Assembly: GCA_046760225.1 (NCBI GenBank)
Contig: JBHIDR010000039.1
Location: forward strand, 1-5,659
Direction: 5' to 3'
Length of the DNA stretch: 5,659 bases
Origin: Candidatus Aenigmatarchaeota archaeon
GTDB taxonomy: Archaea > Aenigmatarchaeota > Aenigmatarchaeia > Aenigmatarchaeales > JACQIB01
In this document: positions 1-5,659 of the stretch, one piece after another
How positions within the stretch are numbered: the stretch's first letter is position 1
Layout: each line of letters opens with the position of its first letter
Position numbers: made by a program

Positions 1-3000
1 ATTTAAGTACAATTCTGATTTCTTTATATTCCAGAGACAAAATATTACTATGCTGATAAAGAGCATAAGGGAGGTTCCTGAGGAACATCTTGTGACAGGT
101 GGCCATGGCCTTTGCGCTGGCTGCGGACCGAGCATAGGCCTGAAGCTCGCACTGGCAGTGCTGGGGAAAAACACTTTCGTGATTAATTCTGCTGGCTGCT
201 TCACCCTGCAGCCAACATATCCTTATACGCCATTCAAGGTGCCATGGATACATCTTGCAATAGAGAACGGGGGTGCTGCTGCTGTTGGCATATGCTCTGC
301 GCTGAAGGCCCTGAAGAAAAAAGCAACCGTGCTTGCGTACATTGGTGACGGCGCAACCTATGACATAGGCCTTCAGTCCCTGAGCAATGCGCTTGAGCAT
401 GGTCATGATTTCATCTATATCTGCTATGACAACCAGAACTTTGCGAACACAGGACATCAGATGGATTCAGCAACACCAAAGCTCACATGGACAGAGACAA
501 CACCAAAGGGAAACCCGTTCTGGAGAAAGCCCATAAACAAGATAGTGGCAGCGCACGGCATACCATATGTTGCAACAGCAAGTGTAGGCTTTCCTGTTGA
601 TTACATAAACAAGCTGGAAAAGGCAAAGCGCATAAGGGGACCGAAATTCATTAACCTGCTGAGTCCGTGCCAGCCTGGATGGAAGGTTGACCCCTCACTG
701 ACAGTTGAGGCAGGCAAGCTTGCTGTTGAATGCGGTGCATGGCCGCTGTATGAGATTGAGGACGGGAAGTTCAGGCTGACCTACAAGCCGGAGAAGCTAA
801 AGCCAGTAAAGGAGTACTTGAAGATTCAGGGAAGGTACAGGCACCTCAAAGAAAAGGACATAAGAAAAATACAGGAATGGGTAAACGAGGAGTGGAGGCA
901 GCTTTCAGCAGGAAATTTCTGGGAGGCAAGGGAATACTAGTTCAGGGGCGTGAACTCAAAGTCCCATGCATCATCTATGGGGTATTCCTCAACAACACCT
1001 ACCTTCAACTTTGTTTTCCTGGCTATGCTCCTGGCAATCGCCTCAGATGTCTGCATCCTTTTTCTTAGTTTATTGTAAGAGAACATTCTTGCTGGTACTT
1101 TCAGCCTCTTCATCTCCTTTTCTGTTTGTTTTTTTGTTCCAAGCACAACGCCCTTGAGCAGGAAGCCGTCCTTGGTTACCTTTTCAAACGGCTTCTTGAT
1201 GTTCCTTGCCCTGTTTGCCAGCCTGTTCCTGAGCTGGTGGTCCAGCTTGAGTCTGGCTGTGCAGAAATGAACATTAAGATTTTTCGCATTCCCTGCAGCA
1301 TACCTGAGGACAGACAGGGCTGTGTTCCTGCTTCCCCTGACAGCTGTGAGTGAGCCTGATGACAGGACCATTCCAAGCTTTTTCATTGGCTCGACATTCC
1401 TTTCAGAGAACTCCAGCTCGTTCAGGTTAAGGAACTTTGCACCTGCTGCATCCAGCCAGTCGGCCAGTCTGCACAGCTGTTTTTTCCTGCCCGGTATCAC
1501 AGGCACCTCCATGCCAACATCCCAGTCGAACTTGAGTGCTTCCTTGACAAGCTCCTGGTTTGTATGTATCCTGATTTCATCAAGTCCTGCCTCATAAAGC
1601 TTCTTCAGCGCCTTACCATCTATTGTGCCGTTGGTATAGAGGTGAAGGTGAAAATCCTTTCCAAACCTTTTCTTCAGAATCCTTATCAGCCTTGCTGTGC
1701 GTGCCAGCCTTGTCAGCGGCTCGCCCCCTGTCATGCCTGCGCCGGTTGAACCGCTCTTTCTTATCTCGCTGATCAGTTGCCTGGTGTTTTTTATTCGTGC
1801 CTCGTTTGCCCATACCTCATCCTTCTGCCACCTTTTCTTTGAGATCGAACAGTACCAGCAGTTCAGGTTGCATATGCCTGTGACAAAGACCACGGTCTTC
1901 CTTCCTTTTATGCAGGGTCTGCAGCCCTTGGGCAGGGTGCCGAGTGCAAAGGATTCACCGGATGTTCTTGAAATCTTTCGCATGAAAGAAATAGAGAGCA
2001 ATAACTCTTAAGTGTTAAAAAAGAGAAGGAAACGTGCAAGCGGGTGCTTGCACCCCAAATGAAAAGCGAAATGGTTCTATTTCTTCTTCTTCTTTGCTTT
2101 CTTCTTTCCCTTCTTTGCTTTCTTTTTGGCCATTTTTTTCACCAATGATAAATCTTTTAAGCAAAAATATTTTTTGCCCTAAGAAATATTTTCCATAAGT
2201 TATATATAAATGTATCGCAAAAAAATTCTAAAGAAAAAAACAATCAAAGCATCCAAAACTGTCCTGGCTTTTTCTTCAGGGCTGCCTTTCCGATGCCTTC
2301 GAGATTCTTTTTGCTTATGTGTTCCCCGCCAAGCGAGACAATGAAGTCAAAAACGTTTTTTTCAGGTACAACAGACTTGATTTCAGGATAAAGAATGCCT
2401 CCTGCTCCGGGCGCCAGACTGTTGCTGATGACTGCAACTGCTTTGCAGTTTCCAAGTGCCTGTGAAATCTCCTTTTTTGGGAGCGGCCGTAGGCACCTCA
2501 GCTGGAGAAGCCCGGCCTTTACCTTCTTTTTTCTTAGGGAGTCCACAACAGCCTGAAGTGTTGTGCACATTGCTCCGAGGGCAACATACACGATGTCCGC
2601 ATCCTGTGTTTTATATTTTTCCACAACAGCATACTTCCTTCCAAACCTCTTGTTAAATTCACTGAAGATTTTGGGCATGAGCTGAAGGGCATTTAAGTGA
2701 GCCTTGTGCACCTGTGAACGGAATTTCATATAGCCTTCCATTACAGGGACGCCCATTGATATGGGCCTGTTCGCATCAAGCGATGTAACAGGCTTGTAGG
2801 GTGGTAGGAAGAGGTCGACCTGCTTTTGTTCAGGAACTTCTGTTGGCTCCCTTGTGAAGCTGAGTATGAAACCGTCCATGTTTACAATCGCTGGAAGAAG
2901 AACCTTGCTGTGTTCTGCAATCCTGAAGGAGAGTATTATGCTGTCAAGGACCTCTTGGTTGTTCTTGGCAAACAGCATTATCCAGCCTGAGTTGCGCAGG

Positions 3001-5659
3001 GCCATTATGTCATTGTGGTCGCTCCATAATGTTATTGGGGCTGAGAGACCACGCGAGCAGTTTGCCATCACAAGCGGCATCCTCATACCGCTGGCCACAT
3101 AGTGCATCTCGTGCATCAGCATCAGTCCCTGGGAGGAAGAAGCAGTGAATGTCCTTGCACCTGTTGCCTGGCTTGCTATTGCTGCAGATAGCACAGAGTG
3201 CTCTGATTCAACTGGCACGAACTCGCCATTCCATTTGCCTTCGGCCTTCCATTTTGCAAGGACCTCTATTATCTCGGTTTCCGCTAATCAGAGCCTAACT
3301 CGAGATTAATTGCGGTGTGATTGGGAAATTTGGAACAACCTGGGCCCTTGCCAGCCTTGCTCCCCATGCTGCTGCCTTGTTGCCGTCCATGAGCGTTTTT
3401 GCAGCCATAACTAAATACTTGAAAACTATAAATATAAAAAACCATAAATGACATTATATGTATTTACGAAAATTATCAAATTTAACCAGAAAATACAATA
3501 TTCCAGAAGAATTTATTGTTCCAACTTACAGATACATTAAATCTCATTCTAAAAGGAGAAAGGACTTTGAAAAAAACTTCTTTAAGAGATTTTCAAAAAC
3601 GAAGAGGCAAAGAAGGTTTACATCAAAAAGAATATTGATCAAAAATAAAAGACATCCTGTTGAATTTGCAAGACTTAGGATGCATATAAGAGGCGACGGG
3701 GGTATAAGCAAAAGTGGATATGTATTTTATTACAATTCGGATAAGGCCTTGCTTAATGAATTTATAAACGATTCAAAAAAGGTATTTAAGAATACAAATG
3801 TTTGCATAGTTGGTGACAAGGTTTATCTTTCTAGGAATGTTTCAAGATTTTTTATAGAAAAATGTGGCTATATACCTGGATTAGAAATAACGCATAACTT
3901 GGGTGTAGATTTGGACATATTGAAATGTAATAAAATAATAAAATCTCAGGCAATACGTGCGTATTTTGACGATGAAGCGAGGTTTCATTCTAATGCTATT
4001 GAGATAGTCAGAACAAGAGACATGGGGTTTTTACCTGGGGATACATTGAAGAAGGCTATACAAAACCCGCGAAAATATCATAAATATGCTCCCAGATTCT
4101 TACATGATTTAAGGAGCATGTTAAAAGACCTGGAAATAGATACAGGTCTTCCGTTCGTTTACAAGGGAGACTTATTGATGCATGTTGATGTATACGGGTT
4201 CTTAAGACTGTCTGTTCCATGGAGGTTCTTAATAACAGGAGAAAGTAATTTAAGAAGGTATTACGAATTGGTAGGTTTTAAAAGTGAAAAAAAGATGAAA
4301 ATGCTTGGAGATTATCTGAGAAATATAAAGGTTCATAAAGCGAGAAAAAACAAATCAATAAAGCTTGCTATCAAAAATTGTAAGGATTTACAATCTAGAA
4401 GAGGTTTTATAACCGTAAGTTACCTTGCTGAATTTTCTAATAGAAGTGTAAGGCATTCTAGGAGGTGGATATACAAACTACTAGAGTTAAATAAAATAAA
4501 ACTCATTCAAGGTAGGACTGTATATCAGGACAATAAAGGTAGGATGTATAAAGGGTCGGACGAATTCAAATACAAATTGTGCTAATTAAGACTTCCTCCT
4601 GAATTCCTTTTTCACGTCCCTAATCTTGTCAATTGCCTTGACAGGGCAGTTTGCCCAGCAAAGGCCACAGCCCTTGCACATGTTGAAATCGAAAACAGGC
4701 TTGCCGACACTCTTTGCATCTGGAAAGGGCTTTTCCTTTTTCCATTTTATGGCCGAGTCAGGACAGAAAGCAAAGCATATTTTGCATGATATGCACTTGC
4801 TGTAATTTATTTTTGGCCTGAAAACCCTCCAGCCTCCCATATACTTTTTTGAGGAATTGCCTGCTTCAGCCACAAAGGGGATACCCTTTACATCCTCATA
4901 CTTTAGTTTCTTTTCCTCCTTCATCCGACCATCTCATAACATCTTTTTGCTGCCTCAATATTCTTTGGTATGGCCTCGGGGTGGCCTGCCTCTGTAAGCT
5001 CTATTCTTATGGCCTCTTCGAGCTTTTTGAAATCCATACCGAGAATTTTCACAGCAGCTCCCATGAGTGCTGCATTTGCAATGGGCTTTCCTATTAACTC
5101 AAGTGCAACCTCTGTTGCATCTATTGCATAGGCCTTGTTTCTTATCCTGAATTTTTTTCTGAAGAACGATGCTGGATTGGGGCTGTTCAGGAGAATAAAC
5201 GAGTTCCTCTTCAGCCCTTTCAACATCTTCTTGAAGTCCAATGTCTCATCGAATATTATTATGGTATCTGGCTCAAAAACATAGCCGCGCTCGAGCACGA
5301 TCTTTCTATCGCTTCGTACAAAGGATACTACAGGGGCTCCCCTCCTTTCAGCCCCGTACATTGCAAAATTCTGCGTATAGAAACCGGAAAGGAAATATGC
5401 GCGTGCAAGAAAGTTGGAAGACATCTTTATGCCCTGCCCGCCCCTGCCATGTATACGTACCTCAAACATGATATATTAATATGCAGGCTGAATAAAAAAG
5501 CTTACTTGATTATTCTTATGTCAGCTGCCCAACAGCCCTCTGCTGTACAGAATACAGGGTTGATGTCGATTTCCTTTATCTTCTTCCTTATGACAAACCT
5601 GCTGAGCTTTGATACCATGTCATAAAGTGCCTTGAAATTTATTGGTTTGGCTCCCCTCA

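Follow-up and report, generated by a model that had tools for sequence, protein, structure and literature searches.

A probable 31-nt BHB intron in the porA gene of a Candidatus Aenigmatarchaeota archaeon and a neighbouring LAGLIDADG-fold gene

The porA gene of this tiny DPANN archaeon encodes the alpha subunit of pyruvate:ferredoxin oxidoreductase, a core energy enzyme, and the 31 nt at 3309–3279 (minus strand) that interrupt it are very probably an archaeal BHB intron in the porA pre-mRNA. An intron at this place had been proposed in a survey of the genome, and the proposal holds: the geometry was recomputed, and the junction is intact in 116 related loci. The region analysed, referred to as the window, corresponds to contig G000:C39 in its entirety (5,659 nt), such that contig and window coordinates are the same; it belongs to a MAG that is 83% complete.

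Structure of the porA gene and its insert

Exon 1 (3408–3310, minus strand) consists of 33 codons starting with the ATG at 3408 and translates as MAAKT...FPITPQ. Read past its end, the frame yields LISS and then stops, as the insert is out of frame with an in-frame TAG four codons in. Exon 2 (3278–2244, minus strand) begins with TEIIEVLAKW and runs for 344 codons to the stop at 2244, so that the different frames of the two exons, which the survey had reported, are seen directly in the translation. Exon 2 covers positions 20–224 of the 231 in the Pfam POR_N profile (E 1.5e-52) and also matches PFOR_II, while exon 1 aligns in tblastn searches with the N-terminal part of PorA from genes that lack the intron (67–87% identity), abutting the exon-2 match. 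The gene is single-copy (1 match in the genome). Cuts between residues 2 and 3 of each bulge described below place PITPQ-TEIIE in one frame, identical to uninterrupted homologues, and the claim that the cut restores both the frame and a conserved motif is thereby borne out.

The motif itself was recovered as the survey had described it, with a 4-bp central helix, two opposed 3-nt bulges and a 5-bp inner helix. The 5' strand of the central helix, CCGC (3315–3312), lies in exon 1, where it comprises a Pro codon and the first base of the Gln codon, and it pairs with GCGG (3284–3281) inside the intron. Bulge 1 (AAU, 3311–3309) has its predicted 5' cut between 3310 and 3309, and bulge 2 (AAA, 3280–3278) its predicted 3' cut between 3279 and 3278. 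The element between them (3308–3285) is formed by the inner helix UAAUC (3308–3304)/GAUUA (3289–3285) with a 14-nt loop (3303–3290). No outer helix pair is formed in the window and only 0–1 bp in the intron-bearing relatives; the motif is therefore a relaxed BHB and falls short of the strict hBHBh' form. Relaxed forms are described as accepted members of the class where the host EndA has broad specificity (PMC5829648; PMC2738675), and the cut is reported to fall between bulge residues 2 and 3 (PMC2738675). By analogy with these broad-specificity enzymes (PMC5829648), the EndA of this genome would be expected to accept the relaxed motif.

The minimum-energy fold of the region is a different structure, as the survey had noted (-14.5 kcal/mol; the BHB-constrained fold, at -12.1 kcal/mol, is 2.4 kcal/mol worse); for G037 and the L061 group, the minimum-energy fold is nearly the BHB. 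Chance was assessed by shuffling the insert with the exon bases fixed, a pass requiring a 4-bp central helix and an inner helix of ≥5 bp in the required register. For the window insert 28 of 200,000 shuffles passed in one run and 15 of 100,000 in another, and across the porA loci the numbers were 13–30 per 100,000 and, in a second run, 10–33 per 200,000 (about 0.01–0.03% overall).

The proposed splicing would begin when CCGC at the end of exon 1 pairs with GCGG, close to the 3' end of the insert; this central pairing and the 5-bp inner helix would present two 3-nt bulges, four base pairs apart, and the splicing endonuclease EndA would cut each of them between its second and third base. RtcB would then ligate the exons into a single frame coding for PITPQ-TEIIE, a conserved PorA N-terminal motif. 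Left unspliced, the mRNA could be translated only into a peptide of 37 residues or into a protein truncated at its N-terminus. The enzymes for this process are encoded in the genome. Two paralogous genes with EndA domains are present on contig C2 (22790–23281 and about 23747–24355), one of which aligns best to the catalytic subunit of N. equitans (E 6e-35) and keeps the His, while the other has no His at the catalytic His place; a gene for the RtcB ligase is found on C35. We infer actual cutting and ligation of the porA mRNA from the presence of these enzymes together with the geometry, the exact junction, the conservation of shape across unrelated sequences and the selection on the exons. A look-up of RNA sequencing runs for 2244–3470 listed none.

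Related porA loci and competing explanations

The comparison with intron-less relatives that was missing from the survey has now been made: such loci exist in other families and support the intron reading. The two exon peptides abut with no gap in 16 of 20 loci from related genomes, in 29 of 36 genome-contig loci and in 71 of 81 further loci. All of these read straight through the junction and lack the insert at the exact place; the loci outside the counts are intron-bearing, have no exon-1 hit or, in one case, are odd. The intron-less DNA across the junction encodes PITPQ-TE(I/L)IE. One locus, L010 (the porA of G020), is uninformative, with masked or unknown bases over exactly the N-terminal region.

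At the same codon boundary, unrelated inserts are found in five lineages, namely the window (31 nt), G037 (36 nt), G256 (32 nt), G292 (32 nt) and a metagenome group formed by L061, L062 and L138 (31 nt). The BHB geometry is common to all five: the central helix always has 4 bp and each bulge 3 nt, and the inner helices, built from unrelated sequences, measure 5–11 bp. Furthermore, the third central pair co-varies across the lineages (G-C, U.G, U-A, G.U and A-U), the Pro wobble base being G, U, U, G or A opposite an intron base C, G, A, U or U, respectively. Close relatives differ by precisely the insert: L067 shares about 90% DNA identity with L061 minus exactly 31 nt, and G051 about 75% with G256 minus exactly 32 nt. 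A comparison of the intron-bearing L061 and L138 gives a pN/pS of 0 for exon 1 and of 0.09 for exon 2 (pS 0.19–0.27), which indicates that purifying selection acts on both exons; in the alignment of their introns 1 of 31 bases differs.

A BHB of identical geometry would equally serve a switch in which EndA cleaves the porA mRNA without rejoining it and so lowers expression, with no intron involved, and eukaryotic TSEN is described as cutting some mRNAs without ligation (PMC10485636). We consider this improbable, since removal of the insert restores frame and motif in all five lineages despite lengths of 31, 32 and 36 nt, the pN/pS of 0 in exon 1 is sensible only if that exon is translated joined to exon 2, and a single-copy porA cleaved in this manner could yield no intact PorA. 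Equally small is the probability that porA is a pseudogene, or a tolerated split or truncated gene, whose random insert is never removed and which makes a shorter protein from the GTG at 3218. The frame is indeed broken as annotated and, in line with the survey, porA is absent from the other family genomes (0 of 6), so that the pathway may be dispensable. Against it stand five independent inserts at one codon boundary, all of them BHB where the random rate is about 1 in 5,000, as well as purifying selection on the exons and on the insert and an otherwise intact por operon; moreover, the protein from 3218 would miss POR_N positions 1–41.

Still less credible, with a very slight probability, is that ribosomes either shift frame or bypass the 31 nt by translational hopping of the kind known from phage T4 gene 60, although a short hairpin-forming gap between two frames does resemble a bypass element. 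A hop of the T4 gene 60 type requires matching take-off and landing codons. In porA the take-off codon is CAA, and the inserts end in the triplets GAA, GUU, GAA, GAG and GAG; besides, the conserved pairing between the exon and the 3' end of the insert and the two 3-nt bulges matter to EndA and not to ribosomes. The crenarchaeal cbf5 case was itself formerly mistaken for frameshifting, as PMC2738675 relates. The BHB intron remains the reading that we favour.

The por neighbourhood and a putative mobile cassette

Within the window, porA is surrounded by the other por genes. On the minus strand lie porG (5469–4921; Pfam POR, E 1.5e-35) and porD (4924–4586), with two 4Fe-4S clusters and Pfam Fer4 families. 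The gene for the TPP-binding subunit, porB (50–940, plus strand; Pfam TPP_enzyme_C), is convergent with porA rather than following it, an inversion also present in G037. Between porD and porA, divergent from the latter, is a free-standing LAGLIDADG-fold gene of 375 aa (3458–4585, plus strand). The 49-nt spacer that separates it from porA (3409–3457) resembles the corresponding spacer of G256 and contains an A+T-rich, TATA-like run (3440–3426), about 26 nt before the porA ATG, that may be the porA promoter.

The product of the free-standing gene scores 19.3 bits with Pfam LAGLIDADG_3, under the cut-off of 22.5, and so is not placed in that family by its sequence; all 11 members of the ORF family match the profile weakly (best E 9.5e-5), while the distant relatives L195, L196 and L198 are above the cut-off. 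Its AlphaFold model (pLDDT 88.7) has the LAGLIDADG fold with two motif helices, each ending in an acidic residue (D80 and E173), which we take to be the catalytic ones; these two and the GDGG and DE motifs are invariant in the ORF family. The top PDB matches of the model in Foldseek are LAGLIDADG homing endonucleases (the TliVMA intein endonuclease at 5e-7, and also PI-PfuI, I-Tsp061I and I-DmoI) and WhiA. The window protein keeps the invariant acidic residue at the end of each LAGLIDADG helix, which WhiA is not known to have. In both proteins a helical C-terminal domain follows the LAGLIDADG core, WhiA being a transcription factor made up of a LAGLIDADG domain and an HTH (PDB 3hyi, 8dy9).

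The presence of this gene largely follows that of the intron. It lies between porD and porA in four of the five intron lineages, at the same position in G037, G256 and G292 as in the window, and in 0 of the 25 intron-less loci whose upstream sequence extends for ≥1.3 kb; a search by the LAGLIDADG ORF alone led to two loci, and both carry the porA intron. G256 and G051, of the same genus, differ in both the intron and the ORF, the presence/absence difference amounting to 1.5 kb. Over four independent pairs the ORF goes with the intron in three and shows no difference in one, too few for significance (sign test p 0.25); six contrasts or more would be required. Around exon 1 of G256 and G051 (74 of 99 bases identical, against 72–82% in exon 2) there is no co-conversion signal at this divergence. 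An intron is paired with a LAGLIDADG gene a second time at the AdoMet synthetase gene of G068, and in G004 an intein endonuclease lies 11 nt from the rtcB intron site. Across 26 loci with distant LAGLIDADG-like ORFs, ARAGORN found one tRNA.

Tentatively, and with somewhat less than even probability, the mini-intron and the free-standing gene could form a composite selfish cassette, an enzyme-spliced archaeal counterpart of the collaborative homing of phages. For the putative homing activity of the 375-aa protein, with site-specific DNA cleavage, the 1.5-kb difference between G256 and G051 is indirect evidence. The target of such an endonuclease would be the highly conserved PITPQ-TEIIE coding sequence of porA genes without the intron, the carrier would be protected because the 31-nt intron interrupts this target, and repair of the break would transfer intron and endonuclease gene jointly. 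In phages, likewise, a free-standing endonuclease gene adjoins a conserved gene with an ORF-less intron at a highly conserved site (PMC3984707; PMC2790892); there the introns are self-splicing group I introns, whereas here a BHB intron predicted to be spliced by enzymes sits in an archaeal chromosome. The archaeal rRNA introns of I-DmoI and I-Tsp061I share with the porA case the BHB motif, the company of a LAGLIDADG enzyme and a presence that varies among relatives. However, their endonuclease gene is inside the intron, while that of porA is outside the gene, on the opposite strand, about 150 nt from the 31-nt ORF-less intron.

Other inserts and known archaeal cases

Inserts similar to that of porA are also found in rtcB (twice), cbf5 and top6B of this genome, the one in cbf5 at the crenarchaeal position. 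The census was made by homology comparison with one whole relative, G004, and is a lower bound, as it is confined to genes that G004 also has and to inserts missing there. In adenylate kinase (C20, about 3590), a 30-nt difference proved to encode 10 genuine extra residues of the protein and was ruled out as an intron. A genome-wide scan combining BHB geometry and open-frame logic yielded 44,986 candidate motifs, of which 6,716 fused open frames; decoy cut sites shifted by 1–2 nt gave 6,676–6,820 such fusions, so the scan is without specificity unless homology is added, and it was dropped.

The closest known case comes from Desulfurococcales and Sulfolobales, whose cbf5 pre-mRNA contains a BHB intron (Watanabe 2002; Yoshinari 2006; Yokobori 2009, PMC2738675). 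As described in the last of these, that intron resembles the porA insert in being short and ORF-less (16–44 bp in cbf5, 31–36 nt in porA) within a conserved catalytic or cofactor motif, in having a relaxed BHB with the cut between bulge residues 2 and 3 (predicted for porA), in its patchy distribution with gain or loss among close relatives, and in the hetero-oligomeric EndA of the hosts. The crenarchaeal cases differ in gene, phylum and the lack of an adjoining LAGLIDADG-fold gene. The HVO_1309 mRNA of Haloferax volcanii, a halophile that unlike the present organism has an alpha2 enzyme, is cut by EndA and spliced and is described as the second archaeal mRNA processed in this way (PMC10485636). 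That 2023 review counts only cbf5 and HVO_1309 as archaeal mRNAs spliced by the tRNA endonuclease (PMC10485636), and our literature search retrieved no report of a BHB intron in porA, rtcB, top6B, AdoMet synthetase or DPANN protein genes.

The porA case would extend the known ones to a central-metabolism gene and to a new phylum. One small genome would need such splicing for at least four genes, which gene callers mis-annotate as truncated or frameshifted. The ligase gene is among them, and since rtcB is itself interrupted, the supply of the ligase would depend on the same splicing process. Finally, the recurring LAGLIDADG pairing suggests a putative composite mobile cassette; if real, it would account for the arrival and persistence of ORF-less BHB introns at fixed conserved sites of protein genes. 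The pairing offers a directly testable route to the old question of how ORF-less archaeal introns reach and keep conserved sites.

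The interrupted porA gene

The window spans all 5,659 nt of contig C39, from a genome of 851 kb in 83 contigs that is 83% complete; the nearest named relatives of this genome carry in their titles Candidatus Aenigmatarchaeota, a DPANN group. On the minus strand of the window lie porG (5469–4921), porD (4924–4586) and porA, the gene for the alpha subunit of pyruvate:ferredoxin oxidoreductase. In translation, the porA frame that opens at the ATG at 3408 runs for 33 codons, ends on FPITPQ and meets a stop four codons later. The gene resumes at 3278 in a different frame (TEIIEVLAKW..., 344 codons), which gives Pfam matches to POR_N, from profile position 20, and to PFOR_II. 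Between the two frames stand 31 nt (3309–3279, minus strand), so that translation and Pfam bear out the survey's finding that porA is split here into two exons lying in different frames. The porB gene (50–940, plus strand) is convergent with porA rather than 3' of it, and a radical-SAM gene (2001–937, minus) lies between them; the por locus is thus rearranged over 50–2001, and porB is inverted in the relative G037 too. About 110 nt past porA there is an 18-codon ORF of nearly all Lys and Ala (MAKKKAKKGKKK..., 2077–2133, minus); in G037 a Lys-rich coding stretch is also found 3' of porA (antisense Leu/Phe-rich ORF, L004 2438–2794). In line with the survey, porA is missing from the rest of the window's family (0 of 6 other genomes), and the window PorA falls within the PorA sequences of a different family of the order (f3). 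The whole por locus may have arrived by transfer.

The insert can be folded into the bulge-helix-bulge (BHB) motif that the survey described. Exon bases CCGC (3315–3312) pair with GCGG (3284–3281), close to the insert's 3' end, in a central helix of 4 bp, flanked by 3-nt bulges (AA-U on the 5' side and AA-A on the 3' side, the hyphen marking the cut), and an inner helix of 5 bp (UAAUC/GAUUA) closes a 14-nt loop. In crenarchaeal cbf5 introns, according to the accessible text of PMC2738675, the cut separates the second base of the bulge from the third; this rule, applied to the window, excises exactly 3309–3279. The outer helix is absent (0 bp), which makes this a BHB of the relaxed form. The earlier caveat on folding is true, as the unconstrained minimum-energy structure (−14.5 kcal/mol) is another fold and the BHB-constrained one reaches −12.1. 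When the exon bases were fixed and the insert shuffled, a 4-bp central helix and, in register with it, an inner helix of 5 or more bp arose in 28 of 200,000 shuffles and, in a second run, in 15 of 100,000.

The same site in relatives

The claim that the cut restores one frame and a conserved motif was upheld by comparison, as PITPQ-TE(I/L)IE runs on unbroken in nine archaeal relatives at the DNA level. Of 20 loci from related genomes, 16 have the exon-1 peptide immediately next to the exon-2 peptide; the four exceptions are the window, G037, a masked locus and a locus that lacks an exon-1 match. Adjacency was likewise observed in 29 of 36 loci of the genome_contigs set (six without an exon-1 match, one odd) and in 71 of 81 further, mostly metagenomic loci, three of which have a 31-nt gap and seven no exon-1 match. 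One locus, L067, comes from the same metagenome as the insert-bearing L061, is about 90% identical to it in DNA and lacks exactly the 31 nt.

Inserts at this site were found in five porA lineages. Besides the window, these are G037 (36 nt; central helix CCUC/GGGG, inner helix 5 bp), G256 (32 nt; CCUC/GAGG, 10 bp), G292 (32 nt; CCGC/GUGG, 11 bp) and the metagenomic group L061/L062/L138 (31 nt; CCAC/GUGG, with an unpaired U ahead of the 10 bp). All five share their bulges and cut sites, despite mutually unrelated insert sequences. The third central pair reads G-C in the window, U.G in G037, U-A in G256, G.U in G292 and A-U in the L061 group; the intron base therefore follows the wobble base of a Pro codon through its synonymous changes. 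Per locus, 13–30 of 100,000 shuffles passed the geometry test, and the minimum-energy folds of G037 and of the L061 group come close to the BHB itself. Between the intron-bearing L061 and L138, exon 1 shows four synonymous and no non-synonymous differences, exon 2 has a pN/pS of 0.09 (pS 0.19–0.27), and the aligned introns differ at 1 of 31 bases; judged by such sequence comparison, the intron-bearing gene is alive. On the PorA tree the intron state changes at least four times on well-supported branches, which implies frequent gain or loss.

Other inserts and the splicing machinery

Similar inserts interrupt other genes of the genome. In rtcB, which encodes the RNA ligase, a 30-nt insert that keeps the frame separates GHEGY from GFPIGG (contig C35, L141, about 1544–1573), and a 32-nt one, with stops, lies within GIG-Y-DINCG (about 1646–1677); both have a 4-bp central helix and 3-nt bulges, and their inner helices measure 9 and 7 bp, respectively. 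Eleven nt downstream of the position of the second, the RtcB of the family relative G004 is interrupted between GIGFDIN and CGMRL by an intein of some 505 aa that has LAGLIDADG motifs (G004:C5:42599–45628). A 38-nt insert in cbf5 (C20, about 7685–7722; L221) is absent from G004, has an outer helix (4 bp) and no inner helix, and is predicted to be cut between letters 1 and 2 of the catalytic Asp codon (GGTLD), the position of the classic crenarchaeal cbf5 intron in the accessible text of PMC2738675. The top6B gene, for topoisomerase VI subunit B, has a BHB insert of 30 nt after codon 28, between AEFFE and KNRHLLGF (C2:16536–16565; L220 1537–1566); the insert contains a TGA in frame and is missing from the G004 orthologue (60% identity, 604 aa). 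All the inserts in rtcB, cbf5 and top6B fall within strongly conserved motifs towards the 5' end of the gene, and their 3' exons all start with A. As the latter two genes were found by comparison with the whole G004 genome, the census is a lower bound.

Among RNA genes, the 16S rRNA gene (C1:42935–46858; L223 2936–6859, minus) matches its Rfam model in two pieces, model positions 4–828 over 1,695 nt and 890–1284 over 514 nt; these are spread out and about 1.7 kb apart, and the gene therefore holds several large inserts, presumably introns. ARAGORN in intron mode calls a tRNA-Tyr with a 693-nt intron (C3:24967–25736) that overlaps a weak LAGLIDADG-like match (C3:25070–25405). This putative tRNA is unconfirmed, because standard ARAGORN gives no tRNA there and Rfam places one only at C3:26862–26935. 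Many other tRNA calls of the genome have introns at non-canonical positions.

Contig C2 carries two genes with a splicing endonuclease (EndA) domain side by side. One aligns best with the catalytic subunit of the Nanoarchaeum equitans heterotetramer (E 6e-35), has a Lys/Arg-rich stretch before REH(T)KW and keeps the His of that motif, which we take to be catalytic; its paralogue has no His at this place. Since one paralogue is catalytic-like and the other lacks the His, the sequences suggest an alpha-beta enzyme. Alpha-beta EndA, and DPANN EndA with an extra loop, are reported in the accessible text of PMC5829648 to accept relaxed motifs.

With RtcB also encoded, the porA insert is very probably a BHB intron spliced out by EndA and RtcB, cutting and ligation being the steps that we infer. 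Three other readings were weighed: that EndA cleaves the porA mRNA and the halves are not ligated, that porA is a dead or split gene, or that ribosomes bypass the insert. They fail on the exact restoration of frame and motif across three insert lengths, on the selection acting on porA exon 1 and on the lack of matching take-off and landing codons. Archaeal mRNA splicing was found in print, as far as the accessible texts go, only for cbf5 (PMC2738675) and HVO_1309 (PMC10485636), and the full-text literature, with subscription journals outside it, yielded no report of such introns in porA or in DPANN protein genes.

A LAGLIDADG-fold gene beside the probable intron

Between porD and porA, and opposite in orientation to porA, lies a free-standing ORF of 375 codons (3458–4585, plus strand). 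Its own Pfam LAGLIDADG_3 score is under the cut-off, while 11 of 11 homologues match this family, and the GDGG and DE motifs are invariant in the alignment. A confident structure model (pLDDT 88.7) finds its best matches among LAGLIDADG homing endonucleases (TliVMA intein, 5e-7; PI-PfuI, I-Tsp061I, I-DmoI), and matches WhiA as well. Homologues occur in the same place and orientation in G037, G256 and G292 (58%, 44–51% and 30% identity), and all three have the porA intron, G256 and G292 having been located via the ORF alone. The ORF was absent from all 25 intron-less loci for which 1.3 kb or more of upstream sequence was available. Neither the 1.5-kb insertion with the ORF nor the 32-nt intron is present in G051, a genome of the genus of G256 and about 75% identical to it in DNA. 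In the L061 group the intron occurs with no such ORF. In a sign test three contrasts point the same way with one tie (p 0.25), a test that cannot reach significance because only four independent contrasts exist; linkage over about 150 nt alone would make ORF and intron travel together.

A comparable arrangement was seen at AdoMet synthetase. In G068 (C108; L195/L225) a free-standing LAGLIDADG gene, only distantly related, extends up to the start codon of the synthetase gene, and 24 codons into the latter a 33-nt BHB insert separates ELVERK from GIGHPD. In G065 (C56; L226) a co-varying 32-nt BHB insert occupies the same site with no ORF, and in 15 other genomes of that family the start of the gene is uninterrupted with no LAGLIDADG ORF upstream. 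Other distant LAGLIDADG ORFs adjoin genes in which no insert is visible, namely Nre (three times), a DEAD helicase, TatD and OTCase. Tentatively, and by analogy, the porA intron and the free-standing putative endonuclease might form one mobile cassette, a proposal we liken to phage collaborative homing as outlined in the accessible text of PMC3984707.
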